Assembly: GCA_046861655.1 (NCBI GenBank)
Contig: JBHIAI010000044.1
Location: forward strand, 1 to 13,596
Length of the DNA: 13,596 bases
From: Fidelibacterota bacterium
GTDB lineage: Bacteria; Fidelibacterota; Marinisomatia; Marinisomatales; S15-B10
Direction of reading: 5' to 3'
Shown: positions 1-12,000 of the stretch, piece by piece
Layout of the letters: every line of letters starts with the position of its first letter
Position numbering within the stretch: position 1 is the first letter of the stretch
Made by a program: the position numbers

Positions 1-3000
1 GGAAGGACCTGTCTGGGGGTGTTGTGTCATCGGTGCGGCCTCTGGGTTAGGGGAACGGGGGATTATCTCTTGAAGGTGAAATCTACCCTCCTGGTTTCAT
101 CCTTTTCGATGGTCACGGTGGCGGTCCGGGATCCCAGCTTTTCGTGCCAGGCCTCCACCGTGTAGGTTCCTGGCTCCAGATCTGAGATGGTGTAGACGCC
201 GTCCTTTTCTGTCACATCGAAAAATGGATGATCCGTCACAGCGATGAATCCCCCCATCCATGGGTGAACGTCGCACTTGATGGGAAACACGTCTTCCGCA
301 AACTCAAAGGAACGGGTAGTCTCCTTGAGAAACTTTGGCATGGTGACGTTGAACTCGTCGTTGACGTTGGGAAGAGCGTGGAGGTTGTGAAGGACACCGT
401 CGGAATTCAGGAACTTTAGAGGCTGACCCACCATCAGACCGAGAACGTGGGGTTCGTACCTGCAGCCGTCCTGATTAAGAACGACGGGCTCTTCAGGAAC
501 CTCCCATTCCTTATCCGGTAATCCTCTGGAGATCTGTACAAAGATGTTGGCCATGGTGCTCCCCTCCCCCAACACCAGAGCTTCTGAGCGGGCGGGATAG
601 GCCTCAGGATCCTGTTCGTGCTTCATGACACAGACCGGTTCAATGGCCATGTCAAACGATCTCAGTTTGGGTATTTTCCCTTCATAGCGGACGGTTCCGC
701 TCACTGCCCCGCCTGCGGTCAGGCACGTGAGGTATCCAAACAAAAGGGTCGCCCCTATGCCGGCTGACAAAGATCGATTCATGTTTTCTCCTGCTTTATG
801 AAGGAACGGAAGTCCCCCGGTTCTGGCTACATACCTCCCATGGCCATCATGGTTTCCAGTTCCACATCTCCGCTCTGGGTAATGGCGACGCCAGTTGCGG
901 TTGCCGCGTCCATGGTGATCATATTGTCATCGTTCTCATCGTAATAACCGATCAGGTGGGCATCACTGGCGTCATAGGCCATCTGACTGGTCTCGAAAAC
1001 TCCCACGTAGTACGTTCCCTTCGGAAGGTCTCCCAGATGGACTTCTTCCGTCCCGCTGAGAGTGTCCGGGGCGTTGGGATTCAGGGTTTTCCCCATGAAC
1101 ATCCCGTCTGCCGCGTTGCTGGCCGGGCTCCCCGAAGGACCACTGCTCCAGTTGGACGAGTCCCAGGCGTAGGCCATGACCATGGTGGCGTCTTCTTTCA
1201 TACTGGTGTAATTCATGAACATGACGGACACATGGACTTCTCCCATGATTTCCTCTTCCTCTTCCTCCTGGGCACAGGCGGTGAATCCTGCGGCTACCAT
1301 GATCAGGATGCTCCATACGACGGCTTTCTTATTCATTACCCTTTGCCTCCTCGTTGCGGTTAGTTTCTTAAGTTATTTAGCGGGGTGCATTCTTCCCGGG
1401 GTTGATGAATTCATGAAGCAAGAAATTCACCAGGTCCCAGATCTGATCTTCCGTGAGGGTCCCTTCCACCGCCGGCATGGCACTTCCGGTCAGACCGGTG
1501 GACAGGGTTCGGTAGATATCTTGCGGTTCGGACCCGCCGATGAAAAGCCACGGCCTCGAAAGGTCAGGGGGAACGATCTTTTCTCCCCAGGTATCCTTGA
1601 GGGAGGGGGTGCTGGGTCCGTCTGCGTGGCCGCCTACTCCATGACACTTCCAGCATTCCATGGCCATGTACCATTCCCGCCCCGCGGCGACACTTTCGGG
1701 GGTGGGAGCTTTCCGGGGAGGCAGGGGTAAAACCCTGGCCCTTTTCTGGCGGGCGAACTTTGTGGGAGCGAAGGTTTTGATGTACTGGATAACCGCCTTT
1801 TTGTGATCGGTGGGCAGATTGGACCAGGCCGGCATGGCGTTGTCCTGTCCCATTCCCCGGCCCAGGGTCCTGTGAAGGTCACTGTCCAGAGGGACCTGAC
1901 CCGAGGACGTCGACCGTACCTTGAACTTGCCGTCGGTGAAATTCCGGGGTTTCACAGACAGGTTACCGGCCACGGGACCGTCTCCCTTTCCTGAGACACC
2001 GTGACACACGGCACAACTCTCCACATAGATCTTCCGCCCCTTTTTGAGGACGTCCTCATCCTGACTGCCAGCAAAAGAGGCCGCAACTCCCAGCAGGAGA
2101 ACGACAAAACGTTTGCCCACCCCGTTACCTCCGCTCGTTAGAATGCGAACATCACCATGAACATGAACCAGCTGGAATCGATACTGACCACCCTGCCCAT
2201 TCCGGCCACCCATTCTGGATTGTACATATTGGGAGGCGGCTCAGGGAAACCAAACAGATTGTCCTGATTCCCGTACTCCACCACAACCGTCACCGGTTGA
2301 TAGTTGAGATGCCACCTAAAACCCACCACATACCGGGAGTAACCGTTTTCGGGTCCCGAATCCACATTCCCCGTCATCATCCGGGGCATGGGATCACCGA
2401 AGAAGTATTCGTTCCCGTCGTATTCCCACGAGGCGGAACCGGCTTCCCTGATGAATTGACCCTCTACAGGATCGCCCCACTGGTTATTCACGGTAACCCA
2501 ATCGTAGCGGGTGATGAAATAGAGTTTGGTGGGAACGACGACTACATCCGCACCGATGAAGCCCCCCGAATAGTCGAAGGGCCTGTCCAGCCACTCATCT
2601 ACACTGGCGGTCCTGGCCAGGCCATGGCCGTGATCGCCTTCTTCCTTCCCTCCCCCCGCCAGATACGGAAGATTGAGGTTGGTCATATCGATATCCTCGT
2701 CATGACCTACCACGTACTGGCCGTAGAGGTTAATGGGGTACCCCAGATACAGGGGACCCAGGGTGAAGTCGGGCAGCTTCAGGTCTACAGAAGCGTCCAC
2801 CCCCCAGCGATAGAAGGTGGAATTCTCTTTGTCGATGTGAACGTTGATATCGAATTCGTTTTTCCAGTAATCGATCATGCCATCGGTGGGATAGGGATTC
2901 CCCGAAAGATCCCTCAAGTTCTGGCGCCCATAGTACACCAGGCCTCCCACCCTGGCTGTTTTGATCAACCCGTCAAACATCCTTCCCACGGCCAGACGGC

Positions 3001-9000: not shown

Positions 9001-12000
9001 CCTCCAGTCTTCTGTCATTCTGGAGGGCCTGATTCATGGCGATCCAGAGGAAGATGAAGACCAGAAACACCAGTCCCACGATGGGCACGTTATCGGGCTT
9101 GAGTACAATGAGCCGGAAATTCTCGTCCGTAATCCCGAAGGCGAAAAACGCCAGCAGGATGGCCAGCACCGCCAGGAACCCTTTCGGCGTCCAGATGGCG
9201 TTCAGGTGAAGCCTCCTGTTCCACTTCTCGAACCACTTGCTGGGAGGGAAAAGGAAAAGGAACGTGAGCATGGCCACCGGGAGCATCACCGTGGGTCGGA
9301 TCACCAGGTTGGTTATGGCTTTGAACGTTTCCATCTGCCGGTATCGAGTTCAGAAGGGCCGGGATCAGGTGGGCCCGGAAATGCCTCCGTCTTTTCGGAT
9401 TCGCCAGAAATGAACCCCCATGAATATGAGGATAATAAAGGGGAGCCCGATGCAGTGAAGGACGTAGAACCGGAGGAGGGCTCCCTCCCCCACGAATCTT
9501 CCCCCCAGGAGCGCAAACCGGGCATCGCTCGTCGACTGGATAAAGTTGATGTCCCCTATGCTCAACAGGGAGGCACCGGGGCCTTCATGCCCCAGGAACG
9601 GGGTCGCCCGGGCCATATTGGAACCGACGGTGATGGCCCAGATGGCCAGCTGATCCCACGGGAGCAGATATCCTGTAAAACTCAGGAGCAGGGTGAGAGT
9701 GAGAAGAAGCACTCCCACCACCCAGTTGAATTCCCGGGGGGGCTTGTAGGAGCCGGTCATGAACACTCTGAACATGTGAAGCCACACGGTGATCACCATG
9801 GCGTGGGCACCCCACCGATGGATTTCCCTCATGATACCCAGGGGTACCTGCTCCCTCAAATCCATGATGTCGGTGTAGGCGTATTCCACTGTGGGGCGGT
9901 AGTAGAACATGAGGAGGATTCCTGATATGGTGAGTACCAGAAACAGGAAGAAAGACAGCCCTCCCATGCACCAGGTGAATTTGAGCTTCACCGCATGCCG
10001 GGGAAGCCTTACCGGGTGCAGGTGAAGGAACACGCTGTTCAGGATGGACATCATCCGCTGGCGGCGGGTCACAGGAACGCCGGTCCGGAAAATGGACTTC
10101 CACAGTTGGCTGCCGCCGATTCTTTCGGGAAGGGGGCGCTTCTTTTTCTCTTCAGGATTGGGCGACATGGGGTGGGATTCCTTTCATTGCCTAGACAACC
10201 AGAAACGATTCCGGATCGTTCCATTCTCCTTTTTCGTACTGATATTTCTTGGTCTTGTCCACCTGGATCTGACCGTCATCGGCGAGGACGATCCTGAACC
10301 GTTCCAGAGGACGGGGGGCCGGACCTTCAAAGTTGATCCCTGATTTTCTGAACCCGCTTCCGTGGCAGGGACACTTGAATTTCTGTTCGTTCTCCAGCCA
10401 GTTGGGTGTACACCCCAGATGGGTGCACACCGTTGAAAGGGCGTAGATGTATTCGGGTGTTCTTACCACCCAAATGGCGTGGCGCTTTTTCCACCTGATA
10501 TCCACCTCTCCCACTTTGTACTCATCGGAGAACCCGATCTTGAATGTCTGGGGAGGTTCGAAAAGAACGTTGGGGAACATGAATCTCACGATCATGGTGA
10601 GAAAGGCCCCGGTGGCAGCGGCGAACGCCACCCAGGCCACGGTGAGCCATGAGAAGAAAGACCGGCGGGTCATGCTCTCCGTGATGCTTCCCTTTCCCAC
10701 GGAGGCCCGGGTCCTGGGTGGTAGTTTCTTTTCCTTCAGGTTTTCCATATTCTCACGAGGTTACAGTTTCGAGGCGTTGAGGGCCGCGTTCCGGATTCTC
10801 ATATTCACGTCGGCCCCCGCCAGGTTGCGGATGGCGGCATCCAGAGATGAATCGTTCAGCTGGGACGCCGCATCGATGGCCACCACCACGGCCTCGGTCC
10901 GTTCGTAGCTGTCTACCTCCCTGAACTGGTCGAAATAGTTCATGTCCAGGAGATTCAGAAGAACTCGTTTGCCGGAATGGTCGCCCAGCCTGGCCAGGGC
11001 CACCGCGGAATTCCACACCACATTGGGCTCGGGATCCTTCAGAAGGGATTGAAGGGGTGGGATGCCCTGTGGAAACCCCATGTTTCCCAGGGCGATGGCC
11101 GCCCGGTTTCGAACCAGAGGAGAACGGTGATCCGTCATGGCGATGACCCGGTCCAGATCCGTTTCACTTCCGATGATTCCCAGGGCGAAAACGGCATCGG
11201 CAACCACCTCCTCGGAGTCATCCCGGAGACACCCGGAGACCGTTTCAGAGAATGTCGCCATCCGGGTCTGGCCCATGGCGCGGATCAGGTACTGCTTTAC
11301 CCTGGGGTCCCGGTCGTCTTCGGCATAGTCAAAGGCCGACAACATCTGGGCCACGAACCGGTCGGAGTCGGGTATCCGGTCGGGATCGGACAGAATCTTC
11401 GATAGTTCAAAGGCCGACTGCCACCTCTTGGAGGCACTCCCGATCTTGACGTCTTGAAGGTAGTCCTCCACCGTCTTGGGTTCGTGAGTCAGAATGAGCC
11501 AGATCCAGTAGAAAATCAGAACGCTGACCGCGGTGATTACGAACGGCAGGATAAAGAAGGAATGTATGTTGACCCGTATGGGGGATTCTTTTTTCGTAGA
11601 CTCAGTCACACGATTCTGCATCAGTAAGGATTCACCTGCCCGGCCAAAGGTGCGAATTTACAATACGGGCCTCCTCACGGGCAAAGGTAAATCGTCCCAA
11701 TTGAGGCACGGGGCAAGATTCATTCGGGCAAGTCTGAGTCTGGCAGGGTTGGTACCGGGGAAGGGATTCGAACCCTCATCCCGCAAAGGCGAGACCAGAT
11801 CCTAAGTCTGGCGCGTCTACCCGTTCCGCCACCCCGGCATACAGGGAGTTGAGGATTCGATTGAATCCTGCACTCCCTTCGTCAGGCGCCGTGACATTTC
11901 TTGTATTTCTTTCCGCTCCCACAGGGGCAGGGCTCATTCCGTCCGATTTTCTTGCCGACCCGTACAGGCTGGGGCCGGCCCTGGGTCACGGAAGCCTGCT

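Follow-up and report, generated by a model that had tools for sequence, protein, structure and literature searches.

The 13,596-nucleotide contig analysed here (the window; contig C68) of a Fidelibacterota genome carries a gene for a porin-cytochrome of the Cyc2 family, which its sequence and structural model predict to lie in the outer membrane. In the window, cyc2 stands with genes for a dihaem cytochrome c, a lipoprotein and a blue-copper protein (Table 1). These genes, to which relatives add a second aa3 oxidase, form an inserted cassette preceded by rrf2 and by a conserved operator-like palindrome. The presence of this cassette in a respiratory cluster suggests that an external donor, dissolved iron or one like it, may supply electrons. 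The SAR406 origin given in the initial annotation agrees with the source names of close homologues, and this DNA occurs in hydrothermal-vent sequencing runs from one study.

The initial annotation described three monohaem cytochrome-porins of Cyc2 type, one in the window, one on contig C83 and one divided between contigs C64 and C35, and all of their motifs are found at the places claimed. Each gene encodes a hydrophobic N-terminus, a single CxxCH and an aromatic C-terminal residue. Cyc2 proteins are recognised by a single CxxCH near the N-terminus and a length of >365 aa; the lone CxxCH lies at residue 37 of 547 in C68, and one is present in the 500 aa of C83 and in the 476-aa orthologue of C64/C35 from G276, a genome of the same genus. 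Hydropathy points to a signal peptide in C68, with a hydrophobic stretch (residues 8-26) that ends right before the motif. The pattern P.FA[RK][QK][TY]xxxCxxCHxxxP.L occurs three times in the six-frame genome and not once in each of five shuffles. The filter of Keffer et al. 2021 (PMC8406198) demands PXFAR[Q/K][T/Y] before the CxxCH and PXL after it. C68 and C64 pass this filter; C83 fails it in its strict form, its FAKKY departing by one conservative change. The strict consensus AXPXFAR[QK][TY] fits C64 only, with G at the first position in C68 and FAK in C83. C64 and C35 are indeed one broken gene, as both halves map to a single 488-aa ORF in G276; 48 nt are absent between them and the neighbours are the same as in G276. 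The C68 and C83 genes lack Pfam and NCBIfam matches, as reported, and so does a named Ferrigenium Cyc2. A fourth, more divergent cytochrome-porin, absent from the earlier account, runs from position 16699 of contig C27 to the contig end. Its sequence is Cyc2-like, and membership in Cyc2 was rejected: the upstream motif is altered, PXL is absent and the family profile matches residues 8-39 only.

Homology to Cyc2, which had been argued from motif and architecture, is now seen in direct family-level alignment to named Cyc2 proteins. Over almost all of its columns the family profile aligns with the Cyc2 proteins of Gallionella, Sideroxydans, Ferrigenium, Chlorobium and Zetaproteobacteria (single comparisons, E 1e-40 to 1e-27 among the matches listed). 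With the haem domain removed, 46/71 still match at E<1e-5 compared with 0 reversed controls, and a profile-profile comparison gives a probability of 97.4% over 300 columns. For C68 Cyc2 alone, the best single-sequence BLASTP match to Cluster 1 has E 2.7e-10, the Cluster 1 profile is matched at residues 9-140 only and the porin part scores -1.7 bits. The porin-cytochrome architecture is borne out by an AF2 model (pLDDT 87.5, pTM 0.89) with 16 long strands (counted by hand from the DSSP list), in keeping with the 16-strand porin resembling OprO/OprP expected of Cyc2, and by matches to porin folds at Z of about 24 (Omp32, Z 24.3, rmsd 3.0, 293 aligned). Among the matches listed, the query TM-score is highest for OprP (0.45). 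The best folds include PorB 3WI4/4AUI and 5O78, the entries reported for models of Cyc572 and AfCyc2 (PMC10654088).

On the evidence of their sequences, all three genes belong to Cyc2 Cluster 3; placement used two trees (94 and 41 rows) and an AU test. The kinship with Cyc2 of iron oxidisers stands as membership of a homologous family, but in Cluster 3 and not in the Cluster 1 of Gallionellaceae and Zetaproteobacteria. Grouping of C68 Cyc2 with Cluster 1 (the Gallionellaceae/Zetaproteobacteria/Chlorobium clade) was rejected (AU p=7.5e-5). C68 is assigned to Cluster 3 because it groups, on the same side of a branch with SH-aLRT 99, with five FARKY-type Mariprofundaceae copies, which are a proxy for Cluster 3 (so taken from PMC7029218) in a tree without Cyt572. 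Stand-ins for Cluster 2 (Methylocystis and Caballeronia plasmid proteins and Gemmatimonadota; A. ferrooxidans Cyc2 is not among them) lie across that branch. Pairwise similarity of C68 to Zetaproteobacterial Cluster 3 copies is limited to the haem domain, and the nearest Atlas clusters are from Nitrospirota and Acidobacteriota, the taxa reported around Cyc572. The function of Cluster 3 is termed most uncertain by Keffer et al. (PMC8406198), and in sediments the cluster is found in taxa without a link to iron oxidation. Among Cluster 3 members, Fe(II) oxidation has been reported for Cyt572 and, in a preprint, for a Cyc2 from Nitrospirota produced in E. coli. A Cluster 3 cyc2 assigned to Marinimicrobia already stands in a 2021 supplement.

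The partner of cyc2 had been called a c4-type dihaem cytochrome; it is dihaem, but no cytochrome c4 is among its 14 PDB matches at E<=0.01. The best solved relative, 6h5l_B (E 1.4e-44, residues 23-241), is named 'conserved hypothetical cytochrome protein' by the search tool, and we take it to be the Kuenenia dihaem cytochrome Kustc0457. M77 and M196 are invariant, and the start is most likely GTG 2120, preceded by GGAGG. Cytochrome 579 was rejected for this protein (NF033864, 52 bits compared with a cut-off of 280 bits), and nothing in the genome exceeds that cut-off. Orthologous dihaem loci adjoin this cyc2 type in 15/15 cases (in 14/401 genomes).

The annotated strand-run of cyc2 with the Rrf2, octahaem and Rieske/cytochrome b genes is present, but it goes on to the left of 1377 through the lipoprotein and cupredoxin genes to an ATG at 30, where the contig ends. 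This ATG sits where coxA begins in G276 and, by position and synteny, probably begins coxA1; contig C67 begins with a CoxA C-terminus nearest to CoxA1 of G276 (81%). The cassette cupredoxin matches amicyanin (E 3.6e-6) and pseudoazurin in the PDB, with no rusticyanin among 15 matches, and its ligands H132, C170, H173 and M176 are invariant in 8/8 aligned sequences. The lipoprotein has no Pfam or NCBIfam match and its Atlas neighbours are unnamed; its gene comes after the dihaem gene in most relatives. The three cysteines of the Rrf2 regulator make it a probable Fe-S sensor, and the palindrome and -35-like box upstream are a probable operator and internal promoter. The palindrome is perfect, and at the matching place, in G276 and G181; the TTGACT promoter candidate scored under the promoter-scan threshold. 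In a tree, the CoxA proteins encoded behind the cassette make up a branch of their own (4/24 rows, SH-aLRT 97). In G245 the CoxA adjoining cyc2 is of the ordinary type, and the CoxA insert has weaker matches in four genomes without this cyc2.

Table 1. Features of the window, by contig position
Position	Strand	Feature	Basis
1..30	-	Probable start of coxA1 (10 codons), for subunit I of the cassette's aa3-type oxidase	Position only
63..782	-	Cassette copy of cupredoxin, blue (type-1) copper, secreted; carboxypeptidase-regulatory-like domain at C-terminus	PF13620
827..1336	-	Probable lipoprotein, 169 aa, no known family	Hydrophobic N-terminus ending FTAC
1377..2120	-	Periplasmic dihaem cytochrome c (His/Met), 6H5L-chain-B type	2 CxxCH; PDB match
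2138..3781	-	cyc2, Cluster 3 fused monohaem cytochrome/16-strand porin, 547 aa	Motif, AF2 model, folds, profile match, trees
3814..4260	-	Rrf2-family regulator	PF02082 E 4e-27; C95, C103, C109
4312..4343	-	Palindrome GTGTACT-N5-AGTACAC, 4325-4343 (2 mismatches), and TTGACT -35-like box, 4317-4312	Conservation
4425..5159	-	Second cupredoxin, core bc-cox operon copy	51% identity to cassette copy, ligands same
5199..8210	-	Membrane-anchored octahaem cytochrome c of Rieske/b complex	8 CxxCH
8219..9334	-	Cytochrome b C-terminal/subunit IV-like membrane protein	PF00032
9365..10168	-	Cytochrome b6-like subunit	PF00033 E 1e-39
10191..10748	-	Rieske Fe-S protein	PF00355
10761..11621	-	HEAT-repeat membrane protein, heads core operon	PF13646

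The Rieske/b-octahaem genes are an ordinary complex III. The 1003-aa cytochrome has the eight haem motifs attributed to it, the HEAT-repeat gene precedes the Rieske gene in 20/20 loci mapped, and the second cupredoxin comes after the octahaem gene in genomes without cyc2. The association of cyc2 with this complex holds as adjacency, but the link is largely positional: the complex is present in 177/401 phylum genomes compared with 16/401 for this cyc2 type, and the cassette lies apart from it in several genomes. The dihaem loci run into cox genes in 9/15 cases, to which this genome is added by synteny, and do not in five (G115, G303, G163, G268 and G318). A rus-like set, in which cyc2 shares one run with genes for a dihaem c, a copper protein and an aa3 oxidase, is present in G276, G063, G059, G169, G180 and G302 and, judging from synteny, in this genome. 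The cyc2-dihaem-cupredoxin-cox order recurs in metagenome loci unrelated to the SAR406 lineage; 44 metagenome loci of at least 7 kb include dihaem genes in 38, cupredoxin in 29, cox in 20 and bc genes in 2. The C83 copy has a dihaem partner and lies divergently to an ACIII/Qrc-like operon; cupredoxins and a polyferredoxin accompany the C64/C35 copy. Other Cyc2-like subfamilies of the phylum adjoin pentahaem cytochromes, flavoproteins or NosZ; thus, the Cyc2-like fold is not tied to O2.

The initial annotation proposed an outer-membrane iron-oxidation/electron conduit. A conduit that carries electrons from outside the cell to O2 through Cluster 3 Cyc2 is rather probable, its role being supported by the conserved partner genes, but iron oxidation stays a prediction, with Fe(II) the likeliest main donor, a tentative choice that falls short of an even chance. 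Its anchors are a barrel of 16 strands that bears a haem-c motif at the N-terminus, the fixed dihaem pairing, the cupredoxin copper ligands and the adjacent aa3 oxidase in most relatives. A small soluble reductant outside the cell would give electrons to the Cyc2 haem in the outer membrane, and these would cross the periplasm by way of the dihaem cytochrome c and the blue-copper protein to CoxB/CoxA and O2. Energy would be conserved as proton-motive force, and the host would probably take its carbon from organics. The cassette would be controlled by the Rrf2 Fe-S sensor from the internal promoter, and the C83 and C64/C35 copies would feed other branches. More speculatively, and on balance doubtfully, the cassette may be a second version of the rus operon made from different parts (Cluster 3 Cyc2, an anammox-type dihaem c, a cupredoxin and an aa3 oxidase of its own that has an additional membrane hairpin), regulated, moving in and out of the SAR406 respiratory operon, widespread in other uncultured bacteria and letting users of organic carbon respire dissolved Fe(II) with O2. 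If so, vent and sediment SAR406 would be overlooked iron-oxidising mixotrophs.

The same inward conduit could have a main donor other than Fe(II), such as complexes of Mn(II) or Mn(III), humic or quinone shuttles in reduced form or electrons from minerals, which is somewhat unlikely; it differs from the preferred reading in substrate alone. An action on Mn has been proposed for the Cluster 3 Cyc2 of the Mn(II) oxidiser Ca. Manganitrophus, taxa that are not known to oxidise iron carry abundant Cyc2 homologues in humic lakes, and the recurrence of the gene order in unrelated metagenome loci fits such donors as well. However, the source papers put Mn oxidation by Cyc2 forward as a hypothesis, and the Cyc2 proteins with assays reported in Keffer et al. 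and the Nitrospirota preprint all oxidise Fe(II). An improbable alternative is a haem-gated metal channel or sensor that supplies copper or iron to the copper- and haem-rich oxidase and yields no energy. The C68 subfamily retains M81, H83, M85, H121, H158, H315, H360 and H491 in 15/15 close homologues, and all three copies adjoin copper proteins or cytochromes, with a YtkA-like neighbour of the C64/C35 copy in G276. These His/Met positions, however, are not conserved over the wider Cyc2 family, whereas the haem motif is invariant in 149/149 aligned sequences, and the fixed partner is an electron-transfer dihaem and not a chaperone or TonB-type part.

Detoxification has been raised for Cyc2 (PMC8446621), and Fe(II) oxidation or O2 scavenging at the surface could protect against Fenton chemistry or encrustation with little gain of energy. 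The position of the cassette behind a probable Fe-S Rrf2 sensor would suit this role, as would the negative search for carbon-fixation markers: RuBisCO and acetyl-CoA synthase were not found in this genome (92.8% complete), so lithoautotrophy is unsupported. A-family haem-copper oxidases pump protons. Coupling to such an oxidase would conserve energy, and the cassette is accompanied by a distinct copy of the oxidase. A protective role with little gain of energy is very unlikely. Equally low is the probability of anaerobic respiration or outward flow (N2O reduction, or delivery to Fe(III)/Mn(IV)) with the Rieske/b complex or ACIII as the electron source, even with bc genes directly upstream in 7/15 loci, a run in G163 that extends into a clade II nos cluster, and, in this genome, NosZ, a DMSO-family reductase of type II and 17 ORFs with at least three haem motifs. 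Oxidase genes are the commonest downstream partner in both the genomic and the metagenome loci, and the probable internal promoter lies between the cassette and the bc genes.

Among known systems, the Acidithiobacillus ferrooxidans rus operon (cyc2-cyc1-cup-coxBACD-rus, with a separate pet (bc1) operon) shares the logic of the cassette and nearly its gene order: in both, a porin-cytochrome, a dihaem c, a copper protein and an aa3 oxidase are similarly arranged with ctaAB nearby. Membership of the rus operon was rejected on the dihaem and cupredoxin matches, and by analogy the cassette may work like it with at least partly different components. The rus operon has a Cluster 2 Cyc2 and a c4 dihaem, whereas the cassette has a Cluster 3 Cyc2, a 6H5L-B-type dihaem, an extra lipoprotein and the order coxACDB; its cupredoxin is amicyanin-like with an extra domain. 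Additionally, the cassette is inserted in the bc-cox operon of a host without detected carbon fixation. Cluster 1 Cyc2 (Mariprofundus, Gallionellaceae, Chlorobium) is homologous in haem domain and barrel at family-profile level, but has FARQT in place of FARKY and is split off by a branch of SH-aLRT 99. Cluster 3 Cyc2 (Leptospirillum Cyt572, the second Zetaproteobacterial type, Nitrospira, Manganitrophus) has in common with C68 the signal peptide, PxFARKY-xxx-CxxCH-xxx-PxL and the 16-strand porin; C68 is longer (547 aa) and its conserved positions are His/Met-rich. In Leptospirillum the genes of the chain lie apart from one another, and the chain leads to a cbb3 oxidase. The Geobacter ExtI porin (extHIJKLMNOPQS) also shares its cluster with genes for a Rieske protein, cytochrome b and multihaem cytochromes c, and the bc genes here give weak ExtP, ExtQ and ExtS matches, all three below cut-off; the available description of ExtI mentions no haem motif, and the porin-cytochrome here has no NCBIfam match. 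The Kuenenia 6H5L-B dihaem, closest solved relative of the dihaem over nearly its full length, partners a nitrite-reducing octahaem HAO, whereas the dihaem here follows a porin-cytochrome.

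The assignment of the genome to SAR406 is supported by close homologues of the 547-aa open reading frame (ORF), whose sources label them Fidelibacterota, Marinimicrobia or Neomarinimicrobiota and of which the best is 85% identical. The observation of Cyc2-type genes in this genome is real. A six-frame scan recovers the Cyc2 motif in three genes, on contigs C68 (the window), C83 and C64, and in none of five shuffles. The halves on C64 and C35, separated by 48 unassembled nucleotides by comparison with the same-genus genome G276, are a single gene, since both match one 488-aa gene of G276 with the same neighbours. 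The C68 and C83 copies are 33% identical by BLASTP. A fourth cytochrome-porin, on C27, has an altered upstream motif, lacks PXL and is truncated by the contig end; its relative in G146 (43%) has small haem proteins as neighbours.

The initial annotation based homology to Cyc2 on motif and architecture alone, and a direct alignment of the family profile to full-length Cyc2 proteins now supplies the missing comparison. At E<=0.001, a search profile built from 12 sequences hit 4,072 representatives. Among the matches listed, 136 homologues of at least 365 aa (P0032-P0180) were screened; 135 have a single CxxCH, and the published motif filter accepts 87. One further homologue, P0028 (667 aa), carries a long N-terminal extension, SCO-like by eye, which may be a fusion or a read-through. 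A pattern scan with a Cluster 1 motif found at least 124 stretches. The 80 listed came mostly from Gallionellaceae, Zetaproteobacteria and related taxa, and 73 full-length proteins taken from them served as the comparison set. Throughout the analysis, proxies stood in for A. ferrooxidans Cyc2, PV-1 Cyc2 and Cyt572. The family profile matches the 73 proteins at E 1e-40 to 1e-27 among the matches listed, and with the haem domain removed it still matches 46 of 71 at E<1e-5 (reversed controls, 0); a profile-profile comparison without the haem domain aligned 300 columns (probability 97.4%). The barrel signal may be partly generic because the sole unrelated-porin control, a haem-less 446-aa ORF on C83 with a C-terminal Phe and no Pfam or NCBIfam match, itself shows a weak match (28.6 bits) to the barrel part of the family profile.

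The AlphaFold2 model of the window protein (149-row alignment; pLDDT 87.5, pTM 0.89) has a short helical haem domain followed by 16 long strands by our count, and fold searches with it retrieve 16-strand porins at Z ~24. Some of these entries are also among the best matches for the Cyc572 and AfCyc2 models in passages of PMC10654088. Sequence searches of the PDB with the window protein and the 149-row profile returned no solved Cyc2 relative. Identity with ExtI was considered for the porin-cytochrome and rejected.

Sequence comparison assigns the window protein to Cluster 3 of Keffer et al. (PMC8406198), the Cluster 3 references being proxies and Cyt572 lying outside the trees. Alone, it matches the Cluster 1 profile only over residues 9-140. 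In Mariprofundaceae, the family profile matches 95 of 101 genomes, and five copies, which share FARKY with the window protein, align over their full length with far better scores than the rest (E 1e-42 to 1e-51, as against 1e-30 for the next). These five are taken as the Cluster 3 copies described in Zetaproteobacteria in passages of PMC7029218. In two quick trees (94 rows, LG+G4; a 41-row subset, LG+C20), every SAR406 sequence groups with the five copies, and a branch with SH-aLRT 99 parts the SAR406 sequences from Cluster 1 and the Cluster 2 proxies; the long Zetaproteobacterial branch of the 94-row tree is a warning. Membership of Cluster 1 is rejected by the trees and by an AU test in which the C68 type was constrained into that cluster (p 7.5e-5). 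Passages of Keffer et al. describe the function of Cluster 3 as the most uncertain.

Positions of features in the window and of related loci
Feature	Location	Strand	Remark
cyc2	window 2138-3781	-	547 aa
Dihaem c	window 1377-2120		start probably GTG 2120
Lipoprotein	window 827-1336		
Cassette cupredoxin	window 63-782		
Second cupredoxin	window 4425-5159		
bc genes (HEAT to octahaem c)	window 5199-11621		
GC-rich hairpin, without T-run	window 4400-4412	-	directly 3' of cupredoxin stop codon
secA 3' part	window 11882-13567	-	ended by contig end; unrelated
Fourth cytochrome-porin	C27:16699-17706 (L073:9700-10707)		
Haem-less 446-aa ORF (C83)	L001:279-1619	-	
Pentahaem c and molybdopterin-like genes	L001:9885-12694; also L086	+ (L001)	divergent from C83 cyc2
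Frameshifted cyc2 and cassette coxA	G180 C1:639000-644300 (L037)		assembly error or decay
Cyc2-like run with bc genes	L054:1582-10600; also L058, L060		G242, G014, G001

The genes of the window are transcribed in the order HEAT, Rieske, cytochrome b, subunit IV, octahaem c, cupredoxin, rrf2, cyc2, dihaem c, lipoprotein and cupredoxin; after these, 30 bases short of the contig end, comes an ATG. The octahaem gene is present in 177 of 401 phylum genomes, a Cyc2-like match of any kind in 61 and the C68 type in 16. The surroundings of the octahaem gene were mapped at 20 loci. In G146, G283 and G400 the cupredoxin leads directly into coxA-C-D-B-ctaAB, with rrf2 standing between the two in G181 and G165; this cassette-free arrangement is the empty site. 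The cassette occupies the interval from the cupredoxin to the oxidase genes in G276 and G169. The counterpart pieces in the window's genome lie on C67, C152 and C9 and include two CoxA and two CoxB. One X2 contig extends beyond the left end of the window, and synteny suggests the join to coxA1. The initial annotation linked cyc2 to the Rieske/b-octahaem complex: the two do form one run in the window, but a fixed tie is rejected, as in G063, G059 and G180 the cassette is located elsewhere with its own coxA-C-D-B. Adjacent ORFs with 17, 32 and 8 CxxCH lie 3' of the bc genes at L251 (G047 C1).

The dihaem partner had been called c4-type, an identity that the PDB comparison rejects: no cytochrome c4 is among the matches listed, and the closest solved relative is 6h5l_B (E 1.4e-44), which we take to be Kuenenia Kustc0457. 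Passages of PMC8042395 describe the Kuenenia dihaem as partnering an HAO that reduces nitrite. Of the 401 genomes, 14 have orthologues of the window's dihaem (E<=2e-78, with the next match at 4e-53), at 15 loci in total; C68-type cyc2 adjoins all 15, the locus in the remaining two C68-type genomes being broken by contig ends; kin are not independent, and these and the following counts are not a statistical test. Nine of the 15 loci lead into cox genes, and synteny adds the window's genome as a tenth; the other five lack this continuation, and at G163 a clade II nos cluster follows instead. In G063, G059, G169 and G276, the CoxA that follows the cassette has an additional hydrophobic insert near its N-terminus, and these four proteins form one branch (SH-aLRT 97, 24-row tree); neither holds for the CoxA near cyc2 in G245. 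A profile of the insert matches 10 of 401 genomes: all six with strong matches, four of which built the profile, have C68-type cyc2, and all four with weak matches lack it. G302 has four insert-bearing CoxA loci (C134, C175, C167, C31), at least two behind cyc2-dihaem-lipoprotein-cupredoxin and one with a tandem lipoprotein duplication. Metagenomes yielded 535 confirmed loci, labelled by best BLASTP to a reference set, of which 80 were kept; the 44 of at least 7 kb contain dihaem (38), cupredoxin (29), cox (20), bc (2) or none of these (6), and therefore the order cyc2-dihaem-cupredoxin-cox is not restricted to SAR406.

Both cupredoxins keep the type-1 copper ligands His, Cys, His and Met, and Rrf2 has three Cys. 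Upstream of rrf2 lie a palindrome and a TTGACT box, both of which G276 and G181 also have. The palindrome has two genomic matches at <=2 mismatches vs 5.2 expected, so its standing as a candidate operator comes from its conservation in these two genomes; no regulon was found for it in the genome. The element belongs to the oxidase operon, since G181 keeps it without cyc2 at the site, and the cassette appears to have been inserted under it. A CTCAG-N6-CTGAG repeat preceding rrf2 was set aside, as its 2 genomic copies do not exceed the 2.3 expected. A sigma-70 scan found no minus-strand promoter in the window, and the hairpin may end the bc transcript.

Elsewhere in the phylum, a Cyc2-like subfamily of 390-440 aa (L057, L061, L063-L067, L072) lies directly 3' of a pentahaem cytochrome c in lineages most of which have no octahaem bc complex, a distribution that hints at anaerobic function. 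In G242, G014 and G001, a Cyc2-like gene is followed by a YtkA-like or small protein, cupredoxin, Fe-S flavoprotein, Rieske, cytochrome b and octahaem c. In the window's genome, an ACIII/Qrc-like complex adjoins the C83 copy, and QrcC/NrfD-like genes on C7 are probably its continuation.

The presence of cyc2 in SAR406 is already in print because Data Sheet 1 of PMC8446621 has three Cyc2_repCluster3 rows, two from Loki's Castle and one from North Pond, that it assigns to 'Candidatus Marinimicrobia bacterium'. Marinimicrobia may also be listed in the supplements of PMC10654088 and the figshare trees of Cyc2 papers. Literature joining cyc2 and Marinimicrobia does not, in the passages available, place cyc2 in the phylum (e.g. 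PMC8114936; other papers considered: PMC8276468, PMC5877670, PMC5566968, PMC11411561), and none joining cyc2 and Marinisomatota was found. No description of the cassette, empty site or oxidase branch was found in the literature searched, whose aim did not extend to Acidobacteria operons; the same operon may already be in print there. According to passages of PMC8406198 and PMC8446621, Cluster 3 Cyc2 outnumbers all other putative iron-oxidation genes of marine sediments, yet is found mostly in organisms without known iron metabolism. Here, a Cluster 3 gene has a compact and complete candidate chain to O2, and the clean empty site, own oxidase branch and candidate operator make donor, direction and regulation testable.

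Most likely, electrons would pass from a soluble external donor to the Cyc2 haem, then to the dihaem and a blue-copper protein, and finally to the cassette aa3 oxidase, which would reduce O2. The architecture and partners are observed; we infer electron direction, donor and co-transcription. Fe(II) is the favoured donor because it is oxidised by the Cyc2 proteins that have been assayed, among them Cyt572 (passages of PMC8406198) and a Nitrospirota Cluster 3 Cyc2 in E. coli (parts of bioRxiv 2026.03.26.714105), and because the window DNA occurs in hydrothermal-vent runs (one study, three runs with at least half the words, one possibly the source). No RNA run is among those listed as containing the window DNA. 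Counted against Fe(II), RuBisCO and acetyl-CoA synthase were not found in the genome (2.06 Mb, 92.8% complete). A search for ATP citrate lyase gave a SucD match and one weak match. Donors such as Mn(II) or humic compounds are serious alternatives, drawing on parts of 10.1101/2024.12.25.630300, 10.1101/2021.11.15.468770 and PMC6344600. The genome also encodes NosZ, a type II DMSO-family reductase and 17 ORFs with at least three haem motifs. If Fe(II) is oxidised, iron cycling would involve some members of an abundant ocean phylum that is regarded as heterotrophic. The order of the cassette parallels cyc2-cyc1-cup-coxBACD-rus of the rus operon, whereas at least its Cyc2 cluster and its dihaem differ.
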